Shown: piece after piece, positions 10,590 to 26,228 of the stretch | How positions within the stretch are numbered: the stretch's first letter is position 1 | Layout of the letters: each line of letters starts with the position of its first letter | Source: a virus | Taxonomy: Duplodnaviria; Caudoviricetes | Strand: one strand, 5' to 3' | IMG/VR virus record: IMGVR_UViG_2681813214_000004 | Span: 8,537 to 72,536 of that record | DNA: 64,000 nucleotides | Position numbers and translations under genes: made by a program | Notes under the pieces: model-generated | The model's database searches: none | Told to the model about the DNA's origin: nothing | The model's input: the letters and a program-made list of their open reading frames with translations, nothing else

Positions 10590-11081
10590 ATGAGAGCGTA
10601 TTTCGACGCTTGCGCAATGGTTGAGGATGAGCTTCATTCACAAGTGGCGGGCTATCCGGAGTCACTTTTTGTGTTGCCGACTGGGGCTTGGCTGGATTCG
10701 GACACATACTTTCAAGGACGTGCGGCAGACAAGATCCGTGTTCAGGATCGGTATGGGCGTGGACACGATGTTCAACTGACTGATCACCGGTATTGCAAAT
10801 TAGAATTGCGGAACGACCAGCTTGAATTGAGGCCATCTGAGTTTGTGCGGCGGGCACTGCTTCCCGCAGTGGCGTCACTGTCGGAGAGTTACAACTGTAC
10901 TGTCCTGAACTCTGACGCCCCAGTGATTGTTACGCGTGCACCTAGGCCGGTGCATGGCGATAAACCTGGAGGATATCTCTCTATTAATGGTGTTGATATG
11001 CGGTGGATGGTCATGTATGACCCCACCACTATCTGTGATGCATTGACTGTGGATTTCTATATGGGCATGTCGGAGAACTAA
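10590..11081 (+). CDS. Miniature major-capsid-protein paralogue (P-domain only)
   Basis: Residues 61-99 align ungapped to own MCP 80-118 (14/39 identical); residues 113-159 align ungapped to MCP 231-277 (12/47 identical). Confidence 0.8.
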
Positions 11082-11082
11082 A

Positions 11083-11505
11083 TTGAACGATACAATGATT
11101 ACGGTCGTCGGCAATTTGACTGCGGACCCGGAATTGCGGTTCACGCCGTCTGGTGCTGCGGTCGCCAACTTTACGGTCGCGTCCACGCCTAGAACTTTTG
11201 ATCGTCAGAGTTCGGAGTGGAAGGACGGTGATCCGCTGTTTCTTCGCTGCAATATTTGGAAAGAGGCTGCGGAGAATGTTGCGGAGTCTCTTGTGCGGGG
11301 TTCTCGGGTGATTTTGTCTGGCCGGTTGAAGCAGCGTTCGTTTGAGACTCGTGAGGGTGAGAAGCGTTCGGTGTTTGAGGTTGAGGTTGATGAGATCGGC
11401 CCGTCTTTGCGGTATGCGACGGCGAAGGTTTCTAAGGCCGGTAAGGGTGGTTCTAAGCCTGCTAATGACAGTTGGGCTGCCGCCGACGATTCGGCACCGT
11501 TTTAA
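11083..11505 (+). CDS. ssb: Single-stranded DNA-binding protein
   Basis: [32 protein letters not shown], actinobacterial SSB type; acidic tail ending DDSAPF. Confidence 0.97.
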
Positions 11506-11517
11506 GCGAGGGTTGCT

Positions 11518-11826
11518 ATGGCTGAGAATCTTATTAATCTAACTCCGGACGATATTACAAATATTGCCATAAATCTTTACGAGAAGCACGGCGAGTATCA
11601 GGGCGGTGTTGCGTGGAGAACTCTGGTTGTGCGTGTTGTTGATGCGATGGATGACTATCGAAACACATTTCCGGAGTATCAGCTACGTGTGCACCCAGAC
11701 GGGTCGGCTGTTCGTAGGCGGGGAGGCGAATGGCACTGGGTTTATCCGTCAGGAGAAGCGCCGCCAGTGGTGCCACCTATCCCTGATGTTTGGAGTTGGA
11801 CAGTTGCGTACGAGGGGGATGACTAA
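11518..11826 (+). CDS. Hypothetical protein
   Basis: GAGG RBS; in operon. Confidence 0.6.
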   Translation: MAENLINLTPDDITNIAINLYEKHGEYQGGVAWRTLVVRVVDAMDDYRNTFPEYQLRVHPDGSAVRRRGGEWHWVYPSGEAPPVVPPIPDVWSWTVAYEGDD

Positions 11827-11957
11827 TGTTTCGGTGTTCTGAGTGCCGTAAGCCTATCGGGTTGATGGTCGATCCTAAGGGTAAGCCTGAGTTGTTTAAG
11901 TGCCCACATTCGGGGCGTGTGGCTTCTGCGATAGAAAAGGGCAGTTGGGGGAAATAG

Positions 11958-12287
11958 GTGGCTGAACTTGCCATCGGGGGATACTCGGATGATCTAGTGG
12001 AATTCTCCGGGGTATTCACTGAAGAATACTGCATCTATGAGGCGACGACGTTCCTGGTGACCATAGATATTGGTCACGATCGGGCGCAGTTCGAAGTGCT
12101 TGCCGAATTCGGTAAAGCGGACTGGCAGCTAGCGGTCCGCGTCAGCTCCATGCAGTCGAATATTCCGGTAGTTGTTCGTTTCGATCAAACTGATAGCCCG
12201 GGGTTTGATCCGATGATTGTTTTTGAGTTCGATGATGATGCGAAGGTTCGTGTCATTAAGGTTGGGGGAGAAGATGACGAAGATTGA
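11958..12287 (+). CDS. Hypothetical protein
   Basis: IGGYSDDLVEF motif; GGGGGAAA RBS. Confidence 0.6.
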   Translation: MAELAIGGYSDDLVEFSGVFTEEYCIYEATTFLVTIDIGHDRAQFEVLAEFGKADWQLAVRVSSMQSNIPVVVRFDQTDSPGFDPMIVFEFDDDAKVRVIKVGGEDDED

Positions 12288-13554
12288 ACTACTGGGCAAT
12301 AAGAACTACGCAATCACCGTGATTGCGGTGGGCGAACCACATGACCTTCAGGGCTTGGACAACCTCGTGGGGGTTTCAATCTATGGCCTTCAGGCCCTCA
12401 CGACTCGCGGTATCGAGGCAGGGGATCTGCGGCTGTTGTTTGTGAGTGAGGCACAGATCGGTGAACGGTTCGCGCACGAGAACGATTTGAATCGTAAGGC
12501 CGAGTCCAACAAGACGGAGGCGACCGGGTTTCTGGAGCAGAACCGGCGTGTGCGCGCGATTAAACTGCGCGGCCACGTCAGTAACGCCCTGCTGATGCCG
12601 CTCGACTCGCTGGCCTACACGGGTCTGGACACGTCCTCGCTGAAGGTTGGGGACACGTTCGACACCGTTAATGGAGAAACCGTCGTCCGAAAGTACGAGG
12701 TCCCCGGTAAGGGTGTTCAGGGTAAGCCGGGGCAGCCGAAGATCCGGCAGCGCGTGGACCAAAAGCTGTTCCCGATGCATCTGGACACGGAGCATCTGTT
12801 CCGGAACATGCAGGTGTTCCGTGCCCCTCGGCGAGTAGTGGTCACGCAGAAGTTGCACGGCACTTCTATCCGTATTGGCCGGGTTCCGGCCGCCCGCGAT
12901 AAGGGCTGGATTGAGCGGGTTGTGGTCAACAAGTGGCTGGGTATCTCTACCCCGGAAACGGCTTACGAGGATGTGGCGGGGTCTCGCAGGGCCATCAAGG
13001 GCCGCGACGACAACAACCACTACTACGACTCCGATATTTGGGCCGAGTACGCGAAGCGCCTTGAGGGAATGATCCCGGAGAACTTCATCGTGTACGGGGA
13101 GTTGATCGGGTGGGAGTCGCCGGAGAAGCCGATCATGCACGGCTACACCTACGACTTGAAGCCTGGCGAGCGGGAGCTGTACGTGTACCGGGTCGCGACA
13201 GTGAACGGCCAAGGTGTTATCGCTGATTTGTCATGGGAGGGTGTGGAGCAGTTCTGTGCCGCTATCGGGGTCAAGACTGTACCGACACTGGATATTCAGA
13301 CTATTTACTCGCCAATGGGCTTGGACGATGACCAGTACTTGTATGAGTTCACGGAATTGCTGGACGTGAATTATTCCACTGTTGGCTACCCGGATGCAGT
13401 GCCGCTATCAAACCCGAAGTCTGTCGATGAGGGCTTCTGTTTGCGTATTGAGGGGCAGGTTCCCCGCATCTACAAGGCGAAGTCGCCATTGTTCTTTGAG
13501 CATGAGACGAAGCTGCTCGATAAGGGCGAGGTCGATCTAGAGAGTGTGGCCTGA
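12274..13554 (+). CDS. ATP-dependent RNA ligase with N-terminal OB-like domain (DRB0094/Rnl5-like)
   Basis: Motif I TQKLHGTS, motif III VYGELIG, motif IV DEGFC, motif V YKAKS. Confidence 0.88.
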   Translation: MTKIELLGNKNYAITVIAVGEPHDLQGLDNLVGVSIYGLQALTTRGIEAGDLRLLFVSEAQIGERFAHENDLNRKAESNKTEATGFLEQNRRVRAIKLRGHVSNALLMPLDSLAYTGLDTSSLKVGDTFDTVNGETVVRKYEVPGKGVQGKPGQPKIRQRVDQKLFPMHLDTEHLFRNMQVFRAPRRVVVTQKLHGTSIRIGRVPAARDKGWIERVVVNKWLGISTPETAYEDVAGSRRAIKGRDDNNHYYDSDIWAEYAKRLEGMIPENFIVYGELIGWESPEKPIMHGYTYDLKPGERELYVYRVATVNGQGVIADLSWEGVEQFCAAIGVKTVPTLDIQTIYSPMGLDDDQYLYEFTELLDVNYSTVGYPDAVPLSNPKSVDEGFCLRIEGQVPRIYKAKSPLFFEHETKLLDKGEVDLESVA

Positions 13555-14244
13555 ATGGGCATTGGGCGTAAAGAAAAGCAGCTTTTAGACGATATCGTTG
13601 TCTCTGAGAATGCGGCGGATCGTGAGCTGAAGGAAGCTCAGGCGCGGAAGGCGAACGCCGAAGCTGATCTGCTCGATTTGGAATACGCGTTGATCGCTCG
13701 GGCTACGCAGCTTTCACTTGATAGTGATGAGTACTGCGAATACCACTTCGCCGGGGATGTCGATCACGATTCTGTGACTGATTGTTTGGCACAGTTGAAG
13801 TATTGGGATCGGCAGGCCCCTGAGTGTCCGTTCAATATTGAGCTGACATCGCAGGGTGGCTCGGTGTGGGATGGGTGTCGCCTGTTCGATTATCTGGTGG
13901 ATTGGTCGATACGGGGCGGCGGATCGCATGAGATAACTATCCGGGTTCGGGGTATCGCGGCGTCTATGGCGTCTGTGTTGTTGCAGGCTGCTGATCATCG
14001 TGTGATGGGGCGGGGGTCGGTGTTGATGATCCATGAGTCGGCTATGAATCCGGGGTTCGGGCGTAAGTCTGCTTTGGAGGATGCGTTGCGTGCTTTGGAG
14101 GTTGAGGAAAGGTTCTCTGACCCGATTTTTGCGGAGCGCGCGGGGTTGTCTGTTGAGGAGTTCCGGGAGTTGTATCGGCGCCGGGATTTGTGGCTTACAC
14201 CGGATGAGGCGCTGACTATTGGGTTTATAGATCGGATTGGGTAA
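13555..14244 (+). CDS. ClpP-like serine protease
   Basis: SQGGSV, AASMAS (catalytic Ser) and LMIHE (catalytic His). Confidence 0.9.
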   Translation: MGIGRKEKQLLDDIVVSENAADRELKEAQARKANAEADLLDLEYALIARATQLSLDSDEYCEYHFAGDVDHDSVTDCLAQLKYWDRQAPECPFNIELTSQGGSVWDGCRLFDYLVDWSIRGGGSHEITIRVRGIAASMASVLLQAADHRVMGRGSVLMIHESAMNPGFGRKSALEDALRALEVEERFSDPIFAERAGLSVEEFRELYRRRDLWLTPDEALTIGFIDRIG

Positions 14245-14589
14245 ATGGATTCTTTGAGTGCTTTCGCGCGTGGTGAGGCTTCGCGCGGTAATCGTATTCG
14301 TGTTTTCGATTGGGTGCGTGCAGCGGAGATTATTCGTGATGCGAAGCCTGAGTATGCGTCTGCTGGGTTAGCTATGGATTGGGAATACACGGGAGGGCTT
14401 ATCTACGATGATGGCGCCCCTGTGCCTATCGATGATACTTACACGTATCTCGCTTCTACATGGGCTACTCCCGAGTTGAAAATTGATGGGGATGTCTTGG
14501 ATTGTTGGACCTGGGCTGACGAGTCGGGCTGGGACGCAGGGACGTACTGGCCGGAGGAAGCGTTAGAGGTACTTAACGGGGGCGTGTAA
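14245..14589 (+). CDS. Conserved phage hypothetical protein
   Basis: VFDWVRAAEII...AGLAMDWEYTGGLIY...YLASTWATP. Confidence 0.65.
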   Translation: MDSLSAFARGEASRGNRIRVFDWVRAAEIIRDAKPEYASAGLAMDWEYTGGLIYDDGAPVPIDDTYTYLASTWATPELKIDGDVLDCWTWADESGWDAGTYWPEEALEVLNGGV

Positions 14590-14825
14590 TGCTGTTTTAT
14601 TTGGGTGAGTTGTTGAATTGGTATCGGGGTTTGTTTCGGCGCCGTAAAGAGTTGGGTAGACCTGCGACAGCGGTTGAGTTGTTGAGTGTGCGGAACAATG
14701 AGCCGTTGGGTGTTCCGGAGCGCTATCAACTGTTGAGTGATCAGGTTGAGGCTGGGCAATACGGGGTGGTACCTGATTCTGTTGAGGTGTTTCCGTGGGA
14801 TCGTCGGAGGGCGGACGATGAGTGA
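14589..14825 (+). CDS. Hypothetical protein
   Basis: TAATG coupling. Confidence 0.5.
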   Translation: MLFYLGELLNWYRGLFRRRKELGRPATAVELLSVRNNEPLGVPERYQLLSDQVEAGQYGVVPDSVEVFPWDRRRADDE

Positions 14826-15027
14826 CTATTATAAAACGGGGTTTGAGCAGGATGTGCTGGGAATCCTGAACGATATCCGAAAGACGCTTAATGAGGCGTT
14901 GGAGATTCAGAAGCGGCAATGGGAACGTGTGCTCCCGGGCATAAATATTACGGGTCGTGACATTGCCAATGTCGCGGGGGATGACTCGGCTAATCGGCAG
15001 AATTATCAGGGGAATCCGCGGCGATGA
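14818..15027 (+). CDS. Hypothetical protein
   Basis: Coupled ORF. Confidence 0.5.
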   Translation: MSDYYKTGFEQDVLGILNDIRKTLNEALEIQKRQWERVLPGINITGRDIANVAGDDSANRQNYQGNPRR

Positions 15028-15353
15028 GTGACCGTCTTACGCTTTCCGATGGATGCGTGCTTGTTGCGGAAGTCGGGGATTGGGATTACAGCTGGTGGAC
15101 ATGTGGCGTGTTCTATAACCCGTCCACTGGGAAGTTCCATGTTGAAACGGACTGCGGATGCTCGTGTTATGGGCCGTGGGAGGACGTGCGCTCTGCGGCG
15201 GATTTCGACTCCTCGCCCACGAGTCTGGCGGAGTCAATCAATAGCATCCGATCTACAGTCACGAATGTGCGCCTATGGGATGGGCGCGAGGAACTAATTC
15301 GCGAGCTACGCGACTTTTATCAGGCAGAGAAGCGGAGGTCCCGGAATGGCTGA
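15024..15353 (+). CDS. Conserved actinophage hypothetical protein
   Basis: DYSW...GVF...TDCGCSCYGPWE motif. Confidence 0.65.
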   Translation: MSDRLTLSDGCVLVAEVGDWDYSWWTCGVFYNPSTGKFHVETDCGCSCYGPWEDVRSAADFDSSPTSLAESINSIRSTVTNVRLWDGREELIRELRDFYQAEKRRSRNG

Positions 15354-15690
15354 CCAGGATTTGTGGTCTTCTGGGGAACGTGTGGCCGCTTTGAAAGCTA
15401 TCTTGGATGATGGTGGGGATGCGACTCTCCGGAAAATTGAGGCTGCGATCTCTAGGTTCCGTGAGGGCGACCCGCTCGGGGTTGTGCGTAAGGGTTCGGG
15501 GTCAACGTTTTCTAACAGTCCGGTGCTGTATGCATTCTCGCTGGGTGGGGGCCGATGGCTTGTCCAGGGTGATGGTGTATCTGAGACGGTCTACAACTTG
15601 GAGAATGGTCAACATATTAAGGGTTGGGAGAAAGTCTACGACCCGAGGTCTGGGTGTCTGTGTGATTGCGACGAGTACGACTACTACTAG
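15346..15690 (+). CDS. Hypothetical protein
   Basis: Coupled ORF. Confidence 0.55.
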   Translation: MADQDLWSSGERVAALKAILDDGGDATLRKIEAAISRFREGDPLGVVRKGSGSTFSNSPVLYAFSLGGGRWLVQGDGVSETVYNLENGQHIKGWEKVYDPRSGCLCDCDEYDYY

Positions 15691-15782
15691 TGGGGGCGTT
15701 TGTTGATGGATGAGTTTGATGAGGTGTTTTGGGATGATGACGACTATCCCCATACGATGGAATTAGACGAGTACTAATCGCC

Positions 15783-15959
15783 GTGGATGAGTATCTGCAT
15801 TTGGATGTCGAGGAGATGCGCCGAGCCGCCAATAAGCTCGGCGTGTTCCTTGATCGTGCAGCGTTGAAACGCAAGGTGGAGTTTGATCCTGAGTTTGTTT
15901 TGCGTGAGGTGTTGCAGTCTATCAACAATTACCGGGTAATGAAGGGGACAGAAGGATGA
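15783..15959 (+). CDS. Small hypothetical protein (not in ORF track)
   Basis: GTG start MDEYLHLDVEE...; ATGA overlap with the next gene. Confidence 0.45.
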   Translation: MDEYLHLDVEEMRRAANKLGVFLDRAALKRKVEFDPEFVLREVLQSINNYRVMKGTEG

Positions 15960-16273
15960 GCGAACCCGATAGCGTGCTGGCTCACCAGTTCTGGCTTTAT
16001 GGTAAGGATCGTAAGAAGCTGGAACGGTTGAGCAATAAGATCGTGGATCTGATCTTCAAAAAGTTCGGCTCGGATATCGGTGTTCTTACGTCAACTTTTG
16101 CGAACGCAGACGATGTTGAGGAGAACGCGGCTGAGCGGGCGCTGAAACGGTTGAGCGGTCCCGTACCGAAGCCGTGGGGCAAGAACCAGACGCATACTCA
16201 CGCCTATAATTCGGCGATCCGTCATGCTGAGCGGGTTATCCGCGAGGAACTGACGAAGTATCACGGCCTGTGA
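15956..16273 (+). CDS. Hypothetical protein
   Basis: ATGA coupling. Confidence 0.55.
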   Translation: MSEPDSVLAHQFWLYGKDRKKLERLSNKIVDLIFKKFGSDIGVLTSTFANADDVEENAAERALKRLSGPVPKPWGKNQTHTHAYNSAIRHAERVIREELTKYHGL

Positions 16274-16626
16274 CGGGGGTGTGGCCCTGGCCCGAGGACA
16301 CCGAAACTGACCGCCTGCGCCGCATTCTCCACTACTACCGCAGTGCCCTCCTGGAGGAATTTCCTACCCGCTGCCTGACCGTAGATGAACGCATGTTCCA
16401 GTACGGGCAGGAATGGATCACTGATGACGACATTATCGATGTCGATCAGTTGTTTACTGCCCGCGAGGTGTGTGAATATATCGCCGCTAAATGGGGGACG
16501 ACAAAGGTTTCACCGTTTGATGTTCGTAATTGGGAGCGGGCGGGCGCATTTGTGGGGGAGAAGCGTGGTTCGCGGAAGTATTTCCGTCTCGGGGATGTGC
16601 TGGTTGAGGCACAAAAACACAACTAG
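16270..16626 (+). CDS. Putative DNA-binding protein with C-terminal MerR/excisionase-like HTH
   Basis: WPWPEDT...RRILHYYR N-terminus; LFTAREVC...DVRNW...YFRLGDVL. Confidence 0.6.
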   Translation: MTGVWPWPEDTETDRLRRILHYYRSALLEEFPTRCLTVDERMFQYGQEWITDDDIIDVDQLFTAREVCEYIAAKWGTTKVSPFDVRNWERAGAFVGEKRGSRKYFRLGDVLVEAQKHN

Positions 16627-16667
16627 TTCAAATAGTCGTAGTATAAACTAGCATTAGTGGGGGAGAC

Positions 16668-17081
16668 GTGTATCCGAATGACGAGTTCCGTGATATTTCT
16701 GGTGTCCCCGGTTACCGTGCTTCAGCTTCCGGGTTGATTCGTTCTCGGCGCCGCATCCTGAAACAGTGGGTGGATGGTTCGGGCCTGAAACGTGTCCAGA
16801 TCCGTGATAGGCCGAGGCAGGTGCATTTGCTTATGTTGGTGACTTTCTGCGGTCCACGCCCCGATGGGGGCTTCCCTGTGTGGGTTAATGGAGACCGTTT
16901 AGATAATCGGGCCGAGAATTTGTTGTGGGGTGTCCCGGAGCCTGTGGTTGTTCGTTCTGAGGTGTGTTCGAGGGGTCATGCTTTGGATGGGGCTGAGTGT
17001 TGGGGTGCTGGTCGGCATCGTATTTGTCGGGCTTGTGTTGATGGTGTTCCACCGATAGTGGATTTACCCGAGGTGCTTTAA
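16668..17081 (+). CDS. NUMOD4-HNH homing-endonuclease-like protein, probably inactive
   Basis: FRDISGVPGYRAS..G.IRS; VHLLMLVTFCGPRP; NGDRLDNRAENL with W where the HNH His is expected. Confidence 0.75.
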   Translation: MYPNDEFRDISGVPGYRASASGLIRSRRRILKQWVDGSGLKRVQIRDRPRQVHLLMLVTFCGPRPDGGFPVWVNGDRLDNRAENLLWGVPEPVVVRSEVCSRGHALDGAECWGAGRHRICRACVDGVPPIVDLPEVL

Positions 17082-17232
17082 TCGGCACGATTTTGTGGAC
17101 ATTATGCGGGGTTTGTGGTCTTGATTAGGTTTGGTGCTCCCCTCGGGGTTCTGAGCACCGGGCAGTCAGAGTTGTAGGGGTTCTTCTCGCGCGCTCCCTT
17201 GCTGGCTGCCGTCTACTTGAGTAGGGGTCGGC

Positions 17233-17472
17233 ATGACAACTGGTGATGCCGCCTGGGCGGCTCTGGCCGCTGGGATTGCCTTGTATGAGGCGTCTGGGCA
17301 TGAACTCATGACTGATGCCTGGAGAAGGTATCTGATAATCCATCCCATTTTGGCGCGGATAGTTCCGCTTGTTGTTGCGTTTCATTTGAATGGTTGGCTG
17401 CCCTGGTGGGTTGATCCGATACACGGTATTGGGTGGCTGGGTTCTTTGTTGAAAGGTTTTTTCCGTGGCTGA
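17233..17472 (+). CDS. Small membrane protein
   Basis: Hydrophobic segments; resembles a common mycobacteriophage family. Confidence 0.6.
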   Translation: MTTGDAAWAALAAGIALYEASGHELMTDAWRRYLIIHPILARIVPLVVAFHLNGWLPWWVDPIHGIGWLGSLLKGFFRG

Positions 17473-17836
17473 TGCTACTTCACCTGAACATTATCAGTTT
17501 GGCGGTAACCAGCTTATCGACATTACTCGGCATTTGTCGGGGTGCGGTGCGCAGGCCACGCAGTATGTGGTGCGTGCTACTCGTATGGACGGTAAGAATA
17601 AGGGTAAGACGGTGCGTGAGCGCGTTGAGGATTTGGAAAAATCTAAGGTGTTCATTGATGCCGAGATTGAGCGTCTGTCTGCCGTGCAAGATGCTTTTGG
17701 GGTTGATTTGGAGACTCGTAGGGATCTGGTAGAGCGCGCTAAGAAAGCTAGTATCGACGTTCGGGGTACGGCGGGTGGCTCTGGTGGTTACTTTATTAAT
17801 GGCCGCCTCTATACAAGCGGTGGTCCACTTGGATAG
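17465..17836 (+). CDS. DUF3310-like protein
   Basis: SPEHYQ...IDI...YVVRA...K...EDLEKSKVFIDAEI. Confidence 0.75.
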   Translation: MADATSPEHYQFGGNQLIDITRHLSGCGAQATQYVVRATRMDGKNKGKTVRERVEDLEKSKVFIDAEIERLSAVQDAFGVDLETRRDLVERAKKASIDVRGTAGGSGGYFINGRLYTSGGPLG

Positions 17837-18608
17837 CGGCCCTAAGATCCTGACTGTAGACATTGAAACGCAGCGGGCTATCGTTGAAACGTTCAGTTTG
17901 TGGTCAACCTTCACGCATATTGATCGGGTGATTAAACCTTCTCGAATTCTGTGTTTCGCGGCTCAGTGGCGTGGTGATGAGCGTGTGTTGTTCCATATGG
18001 CTTGGGATGATGACGACGATGACGCTTACGACCGGATGATTAATGCGGCGTGGAAGCTGTTGAATGAGGCCGATATTGTTGTCACCTACAACGGTGACCG
18101 TTTTGATTTGCAGTGGTTTAATGCCGAGTTTGAGCGTCTTCGTTTAGGTCCGCCGTCGCCGTATAAGAGTCTTGACTTGGTGAAGGTGACTAAGAAGCAG
18201 TTCAAGCAGGGTTTGTTGTCGATGAAGCTGGATTGGTCTGCGCGGATCTTTTTGGGGGATCGGAAGACTCCTCATGGTGGTACTGATCTTTGGCATGATA
18301 TTCGTTATGGTGTTCGTGCTGAGCGGCGTGCTGCGCAGAAGGTTATGCGCGAGTATTGCGAGCATGACACTGTTTTGACTGGGCGTTTGTTGGAGCGTTG
18401 GTTGCCGTGGTCGAACATCAATATGGGTATTTACCATGATGATGGATTGCCGCATTGTTCTAAGTGTGGCAGGACTGATATGCATCGTGATGGTTTCCAT
18501 TACACGGGGGCTGGGAAGTTTCAGCAGTATCAGTGTAATGATAAGTCGTGTCGGGGTTGGTCTAAGGGTTCTAAGCGTTTGGCGACTACCGAGTTGAGGT
18601 CGGCCTGA
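17829..18608 (+). CDS. RNase H-like / DnaQ-superfamily exonuclease with C-terminal Zn ribbon
   Basis: TVDIET, YNGDRFD, SLDL and YCEHDT motifs; CSKC...CN..C. Confidence 0.85.
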   Translation: MDSGPKILTVDIETQRAIVETFSLWSTFTHIDRVIKPSRILCFAAQWRGDERVLFHMAWDDDDDDAYDRMINAAWKLLNEADIVVTYNGDRFDLQWFNAEFERLRLGPPSPYKSLDLVKVTKKQFKQGLLSMKLDWSARIFLGDRKTPHGGTDLWHDIRYGVRAERRAAQKVMREYCEHDTVLTGRLLERWLPWSNINMGIYHDDGLPHCSKCGRTDMHRDGFHYTGAGKFQQYQCNDKSCRGWSKGSKRLATTELRSA

Positions 18609-18772: not shown

Positions 18773-18877
18773 GAAGACGCTAGAGGAGCGTGTTGCGCTG
18801 CTTGAGGCTTGGCAGGCCGATGTGGATGCTGCGGCTACATCGTTCATACGCGGGATATTTGGTCCGCCTGACACCGA

Positions 18878-19309
18878 GTGAGTGGGAATGTACGGCAGAA
18901 GGCCGGGGAGAATGCGGCTAAGGTAGATCGCCTGTATCAGAAGGCGCGGCAGCGGGCTAAACGTAAGTCGCAGATTTGTGTGCACTGCCACGAGGCTGTG
19001 GATTTGAGTTTGAAGTCTATTTGCCGGTTTGTGGATACTTCTGGATACTCTGTTGAGCGGGCGCGCGAGATTCCGTTTTATTGTGGTGATCCGGGGTGTA
19101 AGGGTAGCCATTCGCGTAAGCCTAATCCTTGGTCGTGGTCTGCTAACCATAAGATTCCTGTTGATCAGTTGCCGCCTGATTCGCCGTTGTTGTATGACGA
19201 CTCAAATATTGAGGCTATGCATTTGCGGTGCAATAAGCAGGTTAACAAGTATGGCGCGGAGTCGCCGCGTGAGAAGAAGTTTAGGACATCCCGTGACTGG
19301 TTCCTGTAG
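18878..19309 (+). CDS. HNH endonuclease (packaging-associated type)
   Basis: CVHC...WSWSANHKIPV...NIEAMHLRCNK and terminal TSRDW. Confidence 0.8.
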   Translation: MSGNVRQKAGENAAKVDRLYQKARQRAKRKSQICVHCHEAVDLSLKSICRFVDTSGYSVERAREIPFYCGDPGCKGSHSRKPNPWSWSANHKIPVDQLPPDSPLLYDDSNIEAMHLRCNKQVNKYGAESPREKKFRTSRDWFL

Positions 19310-19497
19310 TGATTGCATAAGACTGCTGTTGAATTATCCGGTGGGCACCATCCTATGCTCGGGGACTGTGGTGGCTGTTCGTGTGCAAAAGTACAACGGC
19401 TGGGCCGTGACTGATAGCTGGGACACGGAACTGATGAACAGTTATGAGTTGGCACGGGTATTGAGACACGACTTCAGGGTTTTACGGGAGGGCACTG

Positions 19498-19680
19498 ATG
19501 GCGTCTTGTGCTGATTATGTGAAGGTTGCTGAGCAGTTTCAGTGTGTTGAGTGTCCGGAGAAGAATCGGCGTGTCTATTCGTTGAAGTGGATGTTGCAGG
19601 TTCATCTGTTTGCTTATGGGCATCGTGGGTGGCGTGTGGTGTCTGAGGATGCTGATGTGGTGGAGTGGGATAACTCGTGA
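19498..19680 (+). CDS. Small Zn-finger-like protein
   Basis: CVEC...H...GH. Confidence 0.5.
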   Translation: MASCADYVKVAEQFQCVECPEKNRRVYSLKWMLQVHLFAYGHRGWRVVSEDADVVEWDNS

Positions 19681-20083
19681 GCGTCGAATTTGTGTTCGTT
19701 GAGGGTTGGGAAGCGGTCCTCATGGACTTCAAAATGTGGCGCAAGACTTACATGCATATCTGGGATCATCTGCAACACAAAATTGATCTTGAGTGTAGTC
19801 ACCAGGCTTATTGGATAGAGCGTTGTTATGCCTAACCGTGAAACTGGGGTTGACTTCTGGTTTGAGAAGTATCCGGCTGTAGAGGGCTTCGGTTCGCACG
19901 TGTCCGCTGATTATTCGACGCTTGATGCGGTTATTGATTGTTGGTGTGATGATGACCGATATTGATGATTGGGAAGCCGAGTTTGTTGTTTCTCATCGTG
20001 ACAGTCTTGTGCGTTGGTTTGGTTCGTGGGCTTACCGGGATTATGTGGAGAGGCTAATCCAATAAACCGCTATGCAAGGTGCC

Positions 20084-20112
20084 TTGACGGTTGTTGTGTT
20101 TGGGTGTAGCAT
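20084..20112 (+). promoter_or_regulatory. SigA-type promoter for a leaderless toxin-antitoxin transcript
   Basis: TTGACG-17 nt-TAGCAT with ATG at 20120, 8 nt downstream. Confidence 0.7.
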
Positions 20113-20119
20113 TCATTGC

Positions 20120-20354
20120 ATGGAGCTAAGGGATTCGGCTAGGAAGCATGGAATATCTGATGAGGATATTCCATGCCTACGAGAATGCGCTCCGTGTTGT
20201 TGAGTACGAATACCATGGTGAAGAGCGGTTGTTGGTGATTGGACCGGCGCGTGATGGGATGCTGCTGGAGTTGGTGGCGGTTCCTGTTGATGTTCCGGCC
20301 CGGATTATTCACGCTGATCGTCTTCGCCCTAAATACTATGACTATTTGAGGTGA
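20120..20354 (+). pseudogene. Frameshifted RelE/BrnT-like toxin
   Basis: The frame from 20120 reads [17 protein letters not shown]; the cognate C-terminus [12 protein letters not shown]...LELV...[11 protein letters not shown] is in the +1 frame. Confidence 0.7.
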
Positions 20355-20626
20355 TACTGATGACTGTTGCACATGATGATTTGACTGGGTTGGATCAGGT
20401 TGATCCGAAGACTCATCCGGCGCGGGATGCTAGGCATATGCGTCGGATTATTGCGGCTGTGAAGCAGGTTGAGGCTGCCGATAATGAGTTGTATGCGGCT
20501 GTGGCTGCTGCGCGGGCTGCGGGAGATTCGTGGACTGTGATTGCGGTTGGGTTGGGTACGTCTCGTCAGGCCGCTCAGCAGAGGTTTGAGCCTGTATTGA
20601 GGGCCAGTAAAGACGCGCCCCGTTGA
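20351..20626 (+). CDS. Antitoxin with C-terminal HTH
   Basis: [10 protein letters not shown]...[26 protein letters not shown]; overlaps the toxin stop. Confidence 0.75.
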
Positions 20627-20630
20627 AATA

Positions 20631-20887
20631 GACACGGGGAAGTGGAGTGATGTCGGTCCCCATGGGACGGCATTGGTATACGCTCCGCGCTACGGCCACG
20701 ACATGACGTGTACGTGGTTGGGGTGACACCGCCAAGGGTGGTGAAGAAACCCGAAAATAACTCCCGGTCGGGGCAGTGACCGGCGCCAATGGATAGGACT
20801 GCAATCCTTCCGGTGAAGATGCCGTTGAGTGGGGCCGAATGGACCCGCGAGTAGATCCTTGCAGGGATCTTCGGCTACTGTCCACCA
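20631..20887 (+). ncRNA. Candidate structured non-coding RNA, two domains, ending in ACCA
   Basis: Nearly continuous hairpins across an ORF-free 257 nt; 20771-20777 GGGCAGT pairs with 20877-20883 ACTGTCC, followed by ACCA; abuts tRNA-Asn. Confidence 0.55.
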
Positions 20888-20888
20888 T

Positions 20889-20962
20889 TGATCTATAGCT
20901 CAATTTGGTAGAGCAGCGCACTGTTAATGCGCGGGTTCCTGGTTCGAGTCCAGGTAGGTCAG
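20889..20962 (+). tRNA. tRNA-Asn(GTT)
   Basis: Acceptor TGATCTA/TAGGTCA; D arm GCTC/GAGC; anticodon arm GCGCA-CTGTTAA-TGCGC; T arm CCTGG-TTCGAGT-CCAGG; no encoded CCA. Confidence 0.93.
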
Positions 20963-20963
20963 C

Positions 20964-20999
20964 AAGGCTTGGTTGGTGGTTCGAGTCCACCTGCGATTG
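20964..20999 (+). pseudogene. Isolated tRNA 3' half
   Basis: AA-GGCTT, GGTT, perfect T arm GGTGG-TTCGAGT-CCACC, acceptor strand TGCGATT-G. Confidence 0.7.
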
Positions 21000-21055
21000 T
21001 TGCCTGGCGTGCACGTTGGGAGCTGGTGCTTAGTTCGCGCGAAAGTTACTGGTGC

Positions 21056-21096
21056 GATCGTCGTATACGTCTCAATTGGTAGAGCGGAGCCGTTAA
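21056..21096 (+). pseudogene. Isolated degenerate tRNA 5' half
   Basis: D arm CTC-AATTGGTA-GAG followed by GAGCC-GTTAA; no T arm follows. Confidence 0.6.
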
Positions 21097-21105
21097 CGTT
21101 GTGTA

Positions 21106-21177
21106 GCCCTGCGTAGCTCAATGGTAGAGCGGCGGTTTGTGGCACCGCAGATCCGGGTCCGATTCCTGGCGCGTGGA
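21106..21177 (+). tRNA. tRNA-His(GTG), non-canonical
   Basis: G-1; anticodon arm GCGGT-TTGTGGC-ACCGC; T loop TCCGATT; one acceptor mismatch; A73. Confidence 0.75.
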
Positions 21178-21206
21178 CGTGTTTCTAGATCATATTCGGT
21201 GCCGGG

Positions 21207-21407
21207 TTATAGTTCGGGGTTGAGTCTCGGGTTTTCGCCTGCCACGATGCGTTGTAGGGTTGGGCGTGGTATGTGTGTGGCGTTTTCTAAACGTTTGTAT
21301 CCGTATCCGGCGTTGTTGAGTGCCCGTATTTCGGCGTAGTAGGTGAGTATGTCTAGCCGGAGTCGTTCGGTGGTTTCGGCGAGGTTTTCCAACGCGGGCT
21401 CATTCAT
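21207..21407 (-). CDS. Small HTH DNA-binding protein
   Basis: AGYGYKRLENATHIPRPTLQRIV helix-turn-helix pattern. Confidence 0.7.
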   Translation of the reverse strand: MNEPALENLAETTERLRLDILTYYAEIRALNNAGYGYKRLENATHIPRPTLQRIVAGENPRLNPEL

Positions 21408-21456
21408 ATGCTCAAATACTCCCAGCTAGCCAATTTAAAGCTGTGCATTGTTGATG

Positions 21457-21771
21457 TCACTGTGACGTTATGGTGCGGGTGTTGAGGATGGTTAATCCCT
21501 CGTACCATTGGCCCCATGTTTCTATCCATGCTAGTTCGGCCTGGTTTTTTGTTGTGAACACGGCTACTTGGCTGACTGTGATGCCGTTGGGGAGTGTGCG
21601 GTCGAGGGTTGGCCACCATTCTTCATCGAAGCAGGGTCCTCCCCAGTAGTGGCCGTCTGGGTTTTGGATGACCCATCCTTTTTGGCCGGTGTAGTAGCGG
21701 GTTTTCTGCCATAGGGCGCGGGCTGGGTTTTTTCCTTGCTGTACTTTTTCGGTTCGATGCAGGATTCGCAT
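21457..21771 (-). CDS. Hypothetical protein
   Basis: GGGAG RBS; leftward island. Confidence 0.6.
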   Translation of the reverse strand: MRILHRTEKVQQGKNPARALWQKTRYYTGQKGWVIQNPDGHYWGGPCFDEEWWPTLDRTLPNGITVSQVAVFTTKNQAELAWIETWGQWYEGLTILNTRTITSQ

Positions 21772-21852
21772 CTCTAATTCTCCCAGCTTGGCGTATTAAT
21801 CCATTTGCAAAGTAGCTCGGTAATCGGGTGTTTTGGTATGTGGCTGTTGTGG

Positions 21853-22041
21853 CTACGGGATAGCCCAGTATTCGCAGCGGTTGTTTGTTGGGTTGCATGC
21901 GATGGCGGGTCCGCTGTTGGTGTATGGGGGTACTTCCCATGTGGGTTGTAGTGGCCCGTTGTATCCGGGTTGGTATTGGCAGACGTTGAACTGTTCGCAT
22001 GGTGCTGTGTAGATGGCTAGTGCTAGTAGCGTGGTGATCAT
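21853..22041 (-). CDS. Small secreted Cys-containing protein
   Basis: Hydrophobic N-terminus MITTLLALAIYTAPC; four Cys. Confidence 0.55.
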   Translation of the reverse strand: MITTLLALAIYTAPCEQFNVCQYQPGYNGPLQPTWEVPPYTNSGPAIACNPTNNRCEYWAIP

Positions 22042-22226
22042 TAGGACAGTGTTTCCGCCCGAACAGCCTTGGCTGTCTCTATAAGCTTGGGTAGCCCCTG
22101 TAGCACCTTTTCGGCGTCTTCAATTGTGAGCGCCAGCCATGATGTGCATTGCTTGCCAAAGAACCTAAGCTCTATTTCGTCATGTGACGTAGTGAGCTGC
22201 ACATTCTCGTTTATGTCGATTCTCAT
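22041..22226 (-). CDS. Hypothetical protein
   Basis: AAGGA RBS; TAATG coupling. Confidence 0.55.
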   Translation of the reverse strand: MRIDINENVQLTTSHDEIELRFFGKQCTSWLALTIEDAEKVLQGLPKLIETAKAVRAETLS

Positions 22227-22528
22227 TTCAGCTTTCCTTGTGTTGCTGTAGGTAGGCGACTAGTTGCCTATGTGTTTCTTTTATGTACTTGCGTACCGGG
22301 TTTAGGTTCAGTCCGATAGCTTCGGGCGCCTGTTCTATACGTTCACGACCAGTCATAAAATTCCTCAACATCCACCGTCTGCACCTTTAAACCCTTGATC
22401 TTCTCTAGCGCGTCCCCGATAGCCCAGACGTCTATGGGTTCTGTGTATGTGAAGTCAACGTATAGCTTGTACTCCTTGCGTTCACGCCCGGTCATCATTG
22501 ACCCTCTAGGTCGATTATTGTGAGTAGA

Positions 22529-22891
22529 TCAGTCGCGGTCAATGAAGTAGTCGAGAATCGTGGTCAAATGGTCGGCGCTACCCATAGACCACCGATCGGC
22601 ACCCCAATACCCCTCTAGCGTCGGGTTACTCCCACCACTGGCCGTAATCTCGATGTGTGGGCCACCAATGGTGAGTACTACCGCGAAGTCCCTACCGCGT
22701 TCGTCCACCACTTCCAACGGCCATTCTCCGATGGCATCGTTAACGTCGTACTCGTCTACGGGAACCCCGTAATCCTCAGCTAAGCGCGCTGTAGCTTCTT
22801 CATCGCCACCCAATGCGGCCGCGTAGTCCTTGATGGTTTGATCCGTGGCCCTCATCTGGTCGATAAGTAGTTGCTTGTCACGTTCGGTCAT
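22529..22891 (-). CDS. Conserved phage hypothetical protein
   Basis: VVLTIGGPHIEI...LEGYWG motif; AGAGG RBS. Confidence 0.65.
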   Translation of the reverse strand: MTERDKQLLIDQMRATDQTIKDYAAALGGDEEATARLAEDYGVPVDEYDVNDAIGEWPLEVVDERGRDFAVVLTIGGPHIEITASGGSNPTLEGYWGADRWSMGSADHLTTILDYFIDRD

Positions 22892-22921
22892 TGTTCTAGC
22901 CTCTCTATTAGTTGGTATGGG

Positions 22922-23062
22922 TTAGGCGATTGTGTCTGGTCTGCCGATGATTGATTCTATGTATCGGGTTATATTGTCGGCTTGCTTGTCGGTGATGTTC
23001 TGCCAGCGGGCGGCCCAATTATCGCCGCTCTCATCGGTTGCTTCGATCCAAAACTTAGCCAT
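22922..23062 (-). CDS. Small hypothetical protein (not in ORF track)
   Basis: AAGGA RBS; MAKFWIEATDESG... Confidence 0.5.
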   Translation of the reverse strand: MAKFWIEATDESGDNWAARWQNITDKQADNITRYIESIIGRPDTIA

Positions 23063-23091
23063 TGTTTCTATCCTTGGTATGTAGTAGGGGA

Positions 23092-23280
23092 TTAGGACTC
23101 GTACGGGGCGCGCAGTGAGAGCAGTTCGGCCATATCGGTTGGCGATCCGATAGGGTGCGAGTTCGCGTGAGCCACAACTTGCGCCTTAGTTCCGATGAAT
23201 ACCGCCATCTCGGGATCGCGTGTGCCATCTACTTTGCGGCTGTAGTAGTCGCAGTAGGTGCAGTAGTATTGCTCACTCAT
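23092..23280 (-). CDS. Zn-finger-like small protein
   Basis: CTYC...H...H. Confidence 0.55.
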   Translation of the reverse strand: MSEQYYCTYCDYYSRKVDGTRDPEMAVFIGTKAQVVAHANSHPIGSPTDMAELLSLRAPYES

Positions 23281-23319
23281 CAGTTCATTCCTTACTTGTG
23301 TGTAGTGGCTAGAGAGCAG

Positions 23320-23541
23320 TTAGTCGCAGTAGCGCAGATCAGCGGCAATGTTCGTTCGGAACATGTACCCGTGGTGCATGCAGTCGGGCGAATAAGTGGT
23401 GATCTGGTGATTTGTGAACCGGTGAAACTGCCCAGAATGTCCGCAGTCGCAACCGGGGGCGCATATGTGGGACTCGCAGATGCAATGCGGACCGAGCTGC
23501 TGTGAACGCGGTGGGACTGTGAGCGAATCACGAGTTTTCAT
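23320..23541 (-). CDS. Cys/His-rich small protein
   Basis: HCICESHIC...CDC...C...C. Confidence 0.5.
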   Translation of the reverse strand: MKTRDSLTVPPRSQQLGPHCICESHICAPGCDCGHSGQFHRFTNHQITTYSPDCMHHGYMFRTNIAADLRYCD

Positions 23542-23545
23542 GTCT

Positions 23546-23734
23546 CTATCTCGTCTCTTGCGTAGCGGCTAGGTGGCGCCGCATTGCTTCTGATTGGTCA
23601 CCCGCATAGGGCATTGCCGCCGCGATACGACTCGTGTCCCACAGTCGCCAATCTGATCCACGTTGAACAATCGCCTGTAGGTCTGGCACCCGCGCTAACG
23701 CTGCCCGCAGGGTGATCCGATCTTCTTTTCTCAT
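23546..23734 (-). CDS. Hypothetical protein
   Basis: GGGGAG RBS. Confidence 0.5.
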   Translation of the reverse strand: MRKEDRITLRAALARVPDLQAIVQRGSDWRLWDTSRIAAAMPYAGDQSEAMRRHLAATQETR

Positions 23735-23747
23735 GTCTCCATCTCCC

Positions 23748-23933
23748 CTATAGGTAGTCTTTTGGCGCGTCTACGACTGTGCCCATGCTTGGGTTGTCTG
23801 CGAGCGATTGGATGAACCCGCGTGCCGCTTCTTCTGTGGGTAGCGCTACCGGCCCTATTCCGTCCTCGTCTTGCACCCATACATGGAATTGGACGGCACC
23901 GCTTTCGGTGATTGCTTCGTAGTAGGTGCTCAT
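23748..23933 (-). CDS. Hypothetical protein
   Basis: AAGGA RBS. Confidence 0.55.
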   Translation of the reverse strand: MSTYYEAITESGAVQFHVWVQDEDGIGPVALPTEEAARGFIQSLADNPSMGTVVDAPKDYL

Positions 23934-23959
23934 TGGTCTAGTTCCTTATCGGTAGTTGG

Positions 23960-24124
23960 CTAGCGATTCGGTGTCAGCATCCGCACGGGAACGCTACAAA
24001 GGATGAAGGGCTCGCCGAACTCATCGGTTCCAGACAGGCTGGCGTAGCGTCCGCTCTGGCTTATCTGAGTGATGGTGGCGTGTAGGTCTGCTTCACCGAA
24101 TGTAACGAGATCTCCTGTTTTCAT
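23960..24124 (-). CDS. Small beta-barrel-like protein, first gene after the leftward promoter (not in ORF track)
   Basis: MKTGDLVTFG...; AAGGGA RBS. Confidence 0.55.
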   Translation of the reverse strand: MKTGDLVTFGEADLHATITQISQSGRYASLSGTDEFGEPFILCSVPVRMLTPNR

Positions 24125-24156
24125 TGGTCTATGTCCCTTCCCTAAGCCGATAACTA

Positions 24157-24185
24157 ACGGTACCGCTACGATACCCCTATGTCAA
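24157..24185 (-). promoter_or_regulatory. Near-consensus SigA promoter driving the leftward island
   Basis: TTGACA-17 nt-TACCGT on the minus strand. Confidence 0.75.
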
Positions 24186-24348
24186 CCCCATGAATCGAAA
24201 ATCTTTTCAACCGCATCATGCTCACCCCGCACAGCGGCTAGAACACACACGCAACCAGGCGCGAACAACCGGCCTACCCAACACCCGCATTCCACATCTA
24301 AACGCGCCACACGCCCATCTGGGAGCCTTTTATGCCCCGTCCGTGTGA

Positions 24349-24585
24349 TCACCGGGAACACCCCCATGTAACCCACACACCCAGTACAGGTATGCGCCAC
24401 CCACGCCCACACACCACAGGCACAGACAGCCCCTCCTTAGTGGCCTCATATCCGCCCCATATGGATGCCCACACCTCAGCTTCGGGCACACCCAGATACT
24501 CCACGTACCGCTCATATGCGGCCTGTTCACCGTAGGCGGCACCTGTGACACGTAGTTCCGCGTCAATCTCCGACATGGCGCTCAT
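24349..24585 (-). CDS. Hypothetical protein
   Basis: ATGA coupling. Confidence 0.5.
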   Translation of the reverse strand: MSAMSEIDAELRVTGAAYGEQAAYERYVEYLGVPEAEVWASIWGGYEATKEGLSVPVVCGRGWRIPVLGVWVTWGCSR

Positions 24586-24845
24586 CGGGTAACCCCAACA
24601 AAACGGGCCTGCACCCGGCTATAACCGAACGGTGTATGCGCCCTACCCCGCATAGGGTCTTTCTTAGTAGGGGTCACATTGTGCCGCCTATACAGTTCTG
24701 CTAGTACATCCAACGGGTCAGCGCTACCAACAGCGAGGCTAGACCGCATACCCCCATATTCAATACACACAGCGGCCACCACATTGGATGCACCATAGGT
24801 ACGCATAGCGTGGTCGTACTTCTCAAGCGTCGTATAGCTGGTCAT
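24582..24845 (-). CDS. Hypothetical protein
   Basis: ATG with AGGA RBS. Confidence 0.5.
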   Translation of the reverse strand: MTSYTTLEKYDHAMRTYGASNVVAAVCIEYGGMRSSLAVGSADPLDVLAELYRRHNVTPTKKDPMRGRAHTPFGYSRVQARFVGVTR

Positions 24846-24869
24846 GACGATTGTCCTATCTGTTGGGTT

Positions 24870-25150
24870 CCTATCAACACCCACCACACAACCACACCAC
24901 AGGTACCACCACAATACCCCAACACTATCTATTCACAGCTAATTGAATACGCACACACATACACACATACAAGCTATCTATAGCGTTATTAGCCACACAC
25001 CCACACCAACACACACCGCCACCTGCACAAACACACACAACACCTAGTGAACAAACACCACACACCAGCTATCACCATCTCAAGCAAACATGAGACAACA
25101 AACATGCCCTGACCTGCACAAACACAACCCCCTGGGGAGTGCCCCTCGCA
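24870..25150. repeat. CA-rich low-complexity intergenic region with short palindromes; divergent control region or probable genome end
   Basis: Extreme C/A skew; ACCTGCACAAACAC twice (about 25021 and 25112); TATTCA-N8-TGAATA at 24930-24949. Confidence 0.6.
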
Positions 25151-25424
25151 AACATGCAGGTACCGCCTTCAACTGCTAGCGGACGCTCTCTCTCTGGGGT
25201 TTCCTGGGCGATATTTTTCACTTATTTGCAGGTTTCATCGCGCATTGAAAGGTGCGACCTGCGGTTTTCGAGCATTTTCCAGGAGGTTTTCGTGATTTAT
25301 CCAATGAGTGACTGGGAATTGCTTGCCTGGTACATCCGGGCGCGTATTCAGGCTCGTGATTGGGAGCTTCTTCCATCTGATCCGTTCGACGCGTCGGAAT
25401 GGTTTGGTGCAGGGGGATTCGTTG

Positions 25425-25553
25425 ATGTCTGATGAGTTTGATGAGGTGGACCCGGAGTGGTACGAGTGGGCGGGCTCTTTTCTTGGAACGAATGCACGCC
25501 ATCCTTGGCTGATTTATTGCGAAGGTAACCCGACGACTGTGACTAGCCGGTGA
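25425..25553 (+). CDS. Small hypothetical protein
   Basis: MSDEFDEVDPEW...HPWLIYCEGNP. Confidence 0.45.
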   Translation: MSDEFDEVDPEWYEWAGSFLGTNARHPWLIYCEGNPTTVTSR

Positions 25554-25714
25554 GCACTGTTCATGTGCTGCCAATCAATGACTTGATTGAGCATGAAGAT
25601 GTGGGTGATGACTGTTGTTGTGGCCCGGATATTGAGCCTGTTGTTCGCGACGATGGTTCGTGTGGCTGGGTGGTGACTCATCATTCTTTGGATGGGCGGG
25701 AGCGGTTTGAATGA
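25550..25714 (+). CDS. Conserved actinophage small protein (not in ORF track)
   Basis: VHVLPINDLIEH...CCCGP...RDDGSCGWVVTHHSLDGRE motif; GTGA and ATGA overlaps. Confidence 0.7.
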   Translation: MSTVHVLPINDLIEHEDVGDDCCCGPDIEPVVRDDGSCGWVVTHHSLDGRERFE

Positions 25715-25872
25715 ATGAGCCGCTTGATTGGGTCAGTCGTTCGCATTGGCTGATCTATTACGAAGGCAACCCGAACGAGTTCCGAACAATGAGTATTAAC
25801 GAATTCATGGAAACTGTGGGGCTTGAGGACGCAGGTCTGACGATGACCGTCCGCTGGCCTGATAAACAATAA
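25711..25872 (+). CDS. Small hypothetical protein (not in ORF track)
   Basis: HWLIYYEGNP motif; ATGA overlap. Confidence 0.45.
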   Translation: MNEPLDWVSRSHWLIYYEGNPNEFRTMSINEFMETVGLEDAGLTMTVRWPDKQ

Positions 25873-25904
25873 GTTCAGGAACTTTATTCATCACTGGGGG
25901 TGTT

Positions 25905-26228
25905 GTGAGGGAATCGGCGTTGGATCATGCCGCGCTTGAGGCTGTCGGTGGTGGCCGGGTGCTTTATGCGTGTAAAAGCTGGGAGCGGGCGCGTGAAGCG
26001 TTGGAGGCTTTTGAGAGTCGCGGGTATTGGGCGGTTAAGAAGGTCACTCGCTCGTTTGGGGATATGCGGGTTGTTTTTGAGTCGGGTGGCGTTGTCACGT
26101 TTCTGAGTGCGACTCCGCACTCATCTCGTGGTTTTGTTGCTGATCTTTTGTGCCTCGATGGGGTTACTGATGAGCGGACGTTGGAATGTCTGCTGCCGTG
26201 TACGCGGGGTGCGGTGTTGTCTTTCTAG
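25905..26228 (+). CDS. Truncated terminase ATPase-subdomain paralogue
   Basis: GGVVTFLSATPHSSRGFVADLLCLDG...LLP aligns to own TerL GGFVRYISRNKDSGRGFTEIDLVVGDE...LLP; no Walker A. Confidence 0.7.
   Translation: MRESALDHAALEAVGGGRVLYACKSWERAREALEAFESRGYWAVKKVTRSFGDMRVVFESGGVVTFLSATPHSSRGFVADLLCLDGVTDERTLECLLPCTRGAVLSF

Follow-up and report, generated by a model that had tools for sequence, protein, structure and literature searches.

Independent miniature relatives of the major capsid protein and the large terminase in a prophage related to Cluster L mycobacteriophages

Two small intact genes and what they keep of their parents

The 64,000-nucleotide stretch of DNA analysed here, referred to below as the window, corresponds to bases 8537-72536 of a 72.5-kb provirus record in IMG/VR (IMGVR_UViG_2681813214_000004; 96% complete), and the prophage it represents is a distant relative of the Cluster L mycobacteriophages. 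Besides a full-length major capsid protein (MCP) and a full-length large terminase (TerL), it encodes small derivatives of each, which we call mini-MCP and mini-TerL:

10590-11081, + strand: mini-MCP, an intact gene for a 163-residue derivative of the HK97-fold MCP
25905-26228, + strand: mini-TerL, an intact gene for a 107-residue derivative of the TerL ATPase core and a member of phrog_6910

A first-pass annotation of this DNA had proposed that a single genome carries intact, miniaturised and apparently inactive versions of both proteins. This is confirmed: both frames lie where it had placed them, and the homology of each product to its parent is well beyond what chance would give.

The relationship of mini-MCP to capsid proteins is evident at several levels. 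By BLASTP it aligns with the MCP of the window at 31% identity (residues 44-107 against 62-126, E-value 2e-7), with a second block that is weak and collinear (107-159 against 225-277), and it matches phrog_283, a ‘major head protein’ (E 5e-5). A HMMER scan of 1.84 billion representative proteins yielded three other mini-MCP clusters, 158-160 residues long and 31-38% identical, one of them a protein annotated as hypothetical in Mycobacterium sp. IS-836; P0007 and P0011, long repetitive proteins that appeared in the same list, were rejected as artefacts with spurious summed scores. The family is therefore known from four lineages of 158-163 residues that share 22 invariant columns, and the start at 10590 agrees with the N-termini of the homologues. 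A profile built from these four members matches genuine MCPs as two collinear blocks in four genomes (LeBron, two other viral genomes and the window’s own genome), and when the family was aligned with an MCP alignment by hhalign, mini-MCP residues 5-163 paired with MCP residues 6-281 at a probability of 98.5% (E 3.7e-15). In that alignment mini-MCP is deleted for approximately MCP 50-72 and 125-227, and has nothing beyond MCP 281. Every neighbour in the ESM Atlas, whether found through features or through structure, is a capsid protein of the HK97/P22 type, with template-modelling (TM) scores by query of 0.65-0.75. The only match in a metagenome scan with the family, confined to residues 112-160, was set aside as most likely a full-length MCP.

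Judged from the alignment and the ESM Atlas model, mini-MCP appears to retain a start that resembles the N-arm, an E-loop in shortened form, the spine helix and the strands of the P-domain, and to be without the A-domain and the C-terminal Ig-like domain. Specifically, comparison with the Cluster L MCP (Douge gp8, PDB 8ZDH; LeBron gp8) indicates homology across these four retained elements, including a common motif, NG-V/I-x-L/M-R-W/F-L/M-x-x-Y-D ... D-x-Y-x-G. The differences are the loss of about 100 A-domain residues, about 22 residues of the E-loop region and the entire C-terminus, Ig-like domain included, and the placement of the gene in the early operon rather than the head operon. Hence mini-MCP does not have a complete MCP fold with an A-domain, nor does its gene lie in a head module beside scaffold and protease genes. 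In the capsid of Douge, a Cluster L phage, it is chiefly the A-domain and Ig-like domain that provide the contacts within a capsomer (PMC13033339); with both gone, mini-MCP cannot build capsomers. We found no description of a capsid paralogue lacking the A-domain in the literature searched, and mini-MCP shows that an HK97 fold reduced to the peripheral half can persist under selection away from the head operon.

Although mini-TerL resembles its parent only weakly in pairwise comparison (E 0.013 against the window’s TerL), family-level evidence places it firmly. It matches phrog_6910, for which no function is given, over residues 6-102 (E 7.3e-19), and a ‘terminase large subunit’ phrog weakly. 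A tblastn search found the family in 29 of 50,697 phage records, and homologues annotated as hypothetical and 30-36% identical were found by tblastn in Cluster L and Cluster O mycobacteriophages, the Omegavirus mycobacteriophage WXIN, Gordonia phages and Mycobacterium abscessus prophages; further members come from Tsukamurella and Gordonia. A four-sequence profile of the family matches exactly two genes per genome in seven phages, the small gene and the large terminase, and likewise finds the small gene and TerL (E 4e-4) in the window’s genome; in the genomes of 401 Mycobacteriaceae species it matches mainly prophage TerLs, down to E 8e-14. By hhalign, mini-TerL residues 12-106 pair with residues 94-210 of the TerL alignment (97.9% probability, E 3.4e-13). 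AlphaFold2, given 13 family members, predicts a confident compact alpha/beta fold (predicted local distance difference test, pLDDT, 86.8; predicted TM score 0.81), for which the top Foldseek ranks in the PDB are the TerL ATPase domains of D6E, T4, HK97, P74-26 and Sf6, nearly all of the top matches being TerL (TM by query up to 0.74). In BFVD, actinophage proteins of 101-155 residues lead (TM by query 0.81-0.87) and terminases come next. A sequence search of the PDB with the mini-TerL profile gave no matches.

Members of this phrog_6910 and BFVD cluster, such as those of Gordonia phage Hedwig and Mycobacterium phages Catdawg, LeBron (gp94) and Firecracker (gp4), belong to the same family as mini-TerL, from which they show no structural difference; only gene position differs, with the gene directly upstream of terS and terL, the genes for the small and large terminase subunits, here and in several prophages, and elsewhere either within the early arm or amid genes for head and tail.

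What mini-TerL has lost bears out the earlier description of it as apparently inactive. The genuine TerL of the window has a Walker A motif, RQQGKT (approximately residues 78-83), an Arg-Gly pair at 176-177 and a Walker B motif, VVGDE (183-187). Mini-TerL begins only at the helix that follows the P-loop, has no GK[ST] and stops before the strand of the coupling motif; its Walker B reads LCLDG, that is, DG in place of DE, and across the family the site of the catalytic Glu is occupied by DG, DD, NG, EY and others, Glu never being conserved. The alignment ends at TerL residue 210, and no C-terminal RNase-H-like nuclease domain is present. From these features of its sequence, mini-TerL is predicted to be unable to bind or hydrolyse ATP.

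One feature has nonetheless been kept throughout. Arg75-Gly76, just before the Walker-B strand, is invariant in both alignments of the mini-TerL family and aligns with R176-G177 of TerL, which in turn align with an R-G of herpes simplex virus (HSV) pUL15. In the latter protein, R346 is an experimentally verified trans-acting arginine finger and has been equated with R139 of P74-26 (PMC7196598; PMC5727402), suggesting that Arg75 of mini-TerL is the equivalent of such a finger. The family, widespread in actinophages and uncharacterised, would then be a catalytically dead TerL core in which only the arginine-finger face has been kept.

Neither gene arose by recent copying of the phage’s own gene; rather, each stems from an old, separate family. 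Maximum-likelihood analysis of the core common to minis and TerLs puts the P-loop-less minis in one cluster, apart from the TerLs, and pairs the TerL of the window with that of LeBron and not with the window’s own mini-TerL; the mini-TerL family must therefore be old, with no local duplication. To this extent the first-pass annotation, which spoke of paralogues, is corrected. Both genes are conserved: mini-MCP has held its length across four lineages, and dN/dS between two mini-TerL orthologues from different genomes is 0.27. Both mini genes are selectively maintained, and neither is functional as the parent protein.

Longer paralogues of the TerL N-domain also exist, in three Mycobacteriaceae prophages (L053 in G117, L059 in G189 and L074 in G239). 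One of them, of about 250 residues, is ATPase-only with intact Walker A and B motifs and lies directly beside a full TerL; the other two, of about 200 residues, have degenerate motifs (GRT or GKS, and DD). Together with the forms of 107-125 residues they make up a graded series of terminase ATPase-only genes.

It is worth considering whether the two minis are simply decaying remnants of module replacement, functionless leftovers of a former capsid or terminase gene. Phage mosaicism does produce gene fragments, and there is the graded series of about 250, 200 and 110 residues, often beside a full TerL. However, the frames are intact, length is constant at 24-39% identity over many lineages and the motifs are invariant; AlphaFold2 folds mini-TerL compactly and with confidence, the tree sets the minis apart as a group, and the mini-TerL orthologue pair has a dN/dS of 0.27. 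We regard decay as very improbable indeed.

Gene neighbourhoods and independent distribution

The surroundings of the two genes differ. The early arm of the prophage is syntenic with LeBron gp67-gp93 and includes genes for DnaB, polynucleotide kinase, WhiB, a DNA-binding protein, single-stranded DNA-binding protein (SSB), RNA ligase and a DnaQ-like exonuclease. Mini-MCP sits in this early replication and RNA-repair operon, with polynucleotide kinase and RNA ligase, between the genes for the DNA-binding protein and SSB and some 20 kb from the head genes. Its start directly abuts the stop codon of the upstream gene, its end lies 2 nt before the next open reading frame (ORF), and the whole gene is an insertion that separates the homologues of gp80 and gp81, two direct neighbours in LeBron. 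There is no promoter-like site near mini-MCP, and the sole terminator-like match falls inside the downstream SSB gene. In relatives the early operon additionally encodes a nicotinamide phosphoribosyl transferase; like polynucleotide kinase and RNA ligase, this is a gene of the counter-defence type.

Two genes accompany mini-MCP in both of the phages that carry it:

12217-13554, + strand: RNA ligase (phrog_968, E 7e-102), near mini-MCP in the window
13555-14244, + strand: stand-alone ClpP-family protease (PF00574, E 1.7e-17; phrog_94, and also ‘head maturation protease’ phrogs)

In the IS-836 phage, RNA ligase is directly downstream of mini-MCP, and the ClpP-family protease adjoins RNA ligase in both mini-MCP-bearing phages (the second copy being at 12748-13443 of L029). 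Neither the protease nor mini-MCP was found in the right arm of LeBron by tblastn. The protease may have a functional tie to mini-MCP, or may simply be co-inherited with it, the two carrier phages being related. As a separate observation, a 135-residue ORF at 9556-9963 (+ strand), two genes upstream of mini-MCP and beside an HNH endonuclease gene, has a sub-threshold match to the SLOG family (YAcAr, E 3.5e-4) and a match to a ‘GTP-binding domain’ phrog.

Mini-TerL, in turn, lies directly upstream of the genes for the small and large terminase subunits (terS and terL), after three small ORFs on the + strand. It starts with GTG, 5 nt downstream of a Shine-Dalgarno-like GGGGG run. Among the small ORFs upstream, the tandem pair at 25427-25553 and 25711-25872 (+ strand) share the motif H-x-W-L-I-Y-C/Y-E-G-N-P, and between them sits a Cys/His-rich ORF of 54 residues (25550-25714); none of the three has a match in Pfam. 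In most of the lineages examined, mini-TerL homologues are likewise near terminase or head genes, and the positions recorded are as follows:

1-2 kb upstream of TerL: two prophages and phage WXIN
At the right genome end, beside an HNH gene or a few genes before it: two phages
Between portal and protease: Kiko
Among connector genes: UmaThurman
After a DnaQ-like gene: Cluster L (LeBron)
Beside methyltransferases: Cluster O (Firecracker)

The first-pass annotation had gone on to suggest that the two genes work together as one counter-defence or competitor-interference system, and had named co-occurrence in advance as the first of the points on which this would turn. The distribution does not bear it out: mini-MCP and mini-TerL were not found together in other genomes, and they belong to different operons, one for early replication and RNA repair and the other for packaging. 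Only one other complete genome has mini-MCP, that of the phage of Mycobacterium sp. IS-836 (G001, a contig of 77 kb bearing terminal repeats), and there no mini-TerL was found at E<=1. Conversely, LeBron and Firecracker have mini-TerL and lack mini-MCP. Across the 401 Mycobacteriaceae species genomes, approximately seven have small TerL-derived genes and one has mini-MCP, with an overlap of zero, and a tblastn search of the 50,697 phage records found no mini-MCP. Single-sequence scans of viral contigs turned up no relatives. Nor did self-comparison of the genome’s large ORFs, at single-sequence sensitivity, reveal a mini-portal or any other shrunken paralogue. Mini-MCP and mini-TerL are thus inherited independently and are not obligate partners. 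Both families are rare, so their failure to co-occur excludes obligate partnership and does not exclude occasional cooperation.

Proposed binding-surface mimicry and the alternatives to it

We think it somewhat probable that these are two unrelated accessory genes, each most likely a binding-surface mimic of its own parent. What the data show is homology, the loss of domains, conservation, the gene contexts and an independent distribution; any binding, and its consequence, we infer. Mini-MCP would present the inter-capsomer surfaces of the capsid protein (E-loop, spine helix and P-domain) and may bind something that normally recognises the P-domain of MCP, with a host sensor, a capsid protein in the course of assembly (a competitor’s or the phage’s own) or a scaffold as candidate partners. 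It is probably transcribed with the early genes for replication and RNA repair. Its character as an early, variable accessory gene leads us to rank immune or competitor interplay above a role in the phage’s own assembly.

Mini-TerL, probably co-transcribed with terS and terL, appears to keep the strand-helix core of TerL from the Walker-A helix to the helix after Walker B, invariant Arg-Gly included, and may dock onto the inter-subunit face of TerL. Once docked, it would modulate or cap the terminase ring; alternatively, it would occupy proteins that recognise this inter-subunit face. Here our order of preference runs from modulation of the terminase ring through immune interplay to interference with competitors. 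If so, mini-TerL offers a handle both on the regulation of terminase rings and on how phages meet terminase-sensing immunity.

Several observations weigh against mimicry of this kind, or limit it. The AlphaFold2 model of mini-MCP, built from four sequences, is of low confidence (pLDDT 47.6); its secondary structure, a long helix between two sets of three strands, does fit an E-loop, spine helix and P-domain sheet, and Foldseek ranks the Douge capsid protein first for it, yet at E 0.0098 and TM 0.33, which is only a weak hint. HK97 TerL has His at the position aligned with the arginine finger. The Cluster L and Cluster O homologues of mini-TerL lie away from the terminase, which weakens the case for a packaging-specific role. 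Finally, given how rare both families are, occasional cooperation between the two proteins is still compatible with the distribution.

It is informative to set mini-TerL beside its closest precedent, namely vs.8, Ksap1 and Ksap2. Phage T4 vs.8 is a paralogue of the TerL ATPase with intact Walker motifs, and all three proteins activate the defence sensor Avs2 (PMC13601566, a 2026 paper on Avs2 and Upx). Like them, mini-TerL is a stand-alone small protein of the TerL-ATPase fold that particular phage lineages encode besides the real terminase. Unlike vs.8, which keeps both Walker A and Walker B, mini-TerL has neither P-loop nor catalytic Glu, and it occurs in actinophages. The recently noticed class of accessory proteins resembling the TerL ATPase thus reaches into another phage world, where its form is more reduced.

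This precedent bears directly on a narrower possibility, that the genes act singly as trigger-mimic decoys, each binding or titrating an Avs/STAND or CapRel-like sensor of MCP or TerL and so protecting the phage. The premise of the first-pass annotation that capsid and terminase trigger bacterial defences is established in the literature for MCP and TerL (PMC9712102; PMC13601566; PMC13728456), the sensors concerned being CapRel and Avs (PMC9712102; PMC13601566). Avs2 senses the ATPase domain of TerL, in part through salt bridges to terminase Arg154, which lies seven residues before D161 of PhiV-1, the residue mutated as the Walker-B aspartate; vs.8, Ksap1 and Ksap2 occupy the Avs2 pocket, and the authors suggest that such small proteins may be anti-defence factors (PMC13601566). 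Mini-TerL conserves an Arg-Gly of its own about ten residues before the Walker-B aspartate, and mini-MCP, an accessory gene of variable occurrence, shares its early operon with polynucleotide kinase and RNA ligase, both of the counter-defence type. However, the known precedents activate Avs2, none having demonstrated inhibition (PMC13601566), and a November 2026 review of phage countermeasures uses ‘decoy’ only in the title of a reference on decoy nucleotides and names no MCP or TerL mimic in its passages on CapRel and Avs (PMC13728456). That the two genes do not co-occur elsewhere also speaks against it. Taken gene by gene, we hold the decoy explanation to be unlikely. Its strongest form, in which both are independent mimics of pathogen-associated molecular patterns, the one a P-domain-only capsid mimic and the other an arginine-finger-only terminase mimic, occupying sensors without activating them, strikes us as a long shot; if true, such decoys would constitute a class of phage counter-defence of which we found no description in the literature searched.

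Interference with competitors deserves similar scrutiny, in that dominant-negative subunits might poison the capsid assembly or terminase rings of satellites and of other phages infecting the same cell. Among capsid-protein homologues that interfere with assembly, the nearest case is Ccm of SaPIbov5, a satellite-encoded homologue of the phi12 capsid protein that redirects the capsid assembly of its helper (PMC8569155). Like Ccm, mini-MCP is a second HK97-type capsid homologue, other than the main builder of the shell; unlike Ccm, it is encoded by a phage and is without the A-domain needed for capsomers. A ring ATPase would presumably stall on taking up a subunit that has an arginine finger and no ATP site, and both genes are carried by a prophage. 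Yet both lie inside lytic operons with no promoter-like site nearby, and expression in the lysogen is therefore not indicated; the phage’s own MCP and TerL would be encountered first; and although the similarity of the minis to their own parents is low, it is no higher to any identified competitor. We consider interference decidedly unlikely, and return to binding-surface mimicry, gene by gene, as the reading that we prefer.

The packaging and head genes, and other features of the prophage

The genuine counterparts of both small proteins are found in the packaging and head region of the window:

26257-26607, + strand: terS, small terminase subunit (TerS; phrog_1496, E 4.7e-25; frame checked)
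26604-28145, + strand: genuine terL, large terminase (phrog_9, E 8e-67)
28087-29604: portal
29610-30584: VG15/MuF-like protein
30663-31295: scaffold
31343-32515, + strand: genuine MCP, with a P22-coat-like HK97 fold and a C-terminal Big_2 Ig-like domain

The true start of terS is the ATG at 26257, which is preceded by GGAGGGGGG, the stop codon of mini-TerL being 28 nt before. The genuine MCP is 51% identical to LeBron gp8, the Cluster L MCP. Its C-terminal Big_2 Ig-like domain (32240-32515) is paralogous to the C-terminus (34950-35150) of the ORF at 34254-35150 (E ~1e-5), presumably the major tail protein; the capsid protein and the tail tube protein of Douge likewise each have a C-terminal Ig-like domain. 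Between the leftward block of small genes and the rightward packaging operon, a CA/TG-rich intergenic stretch of low complexity (24920-25110) may be a cos or promoter region. Transfer RNAs for Asn and His at 20889-21178 were judged to be real, and a tRNA-Trp reported by ARAGORN at 45384-45463, within a 1289-residue ORF (44623-48492), is probably a false positive.

Contigs from four sequencing runs (3 metagenomes) are almost all >99% identical to the window, with a few divergent pieces in one run. In these contigs the mini-TerL gene has zero variants and the mini-MCP gene one, 11069 G>T, in a single contig of low depth. Over window positions 9500-27500, contigs from wastewater and aquatic metagenomes are again almost all >99% identical, and five runs of one organism contain 98-99% of the sampled words of positions 10000-19999. 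Taken together, these matches suggest that the prophage is widespread and little diverged.

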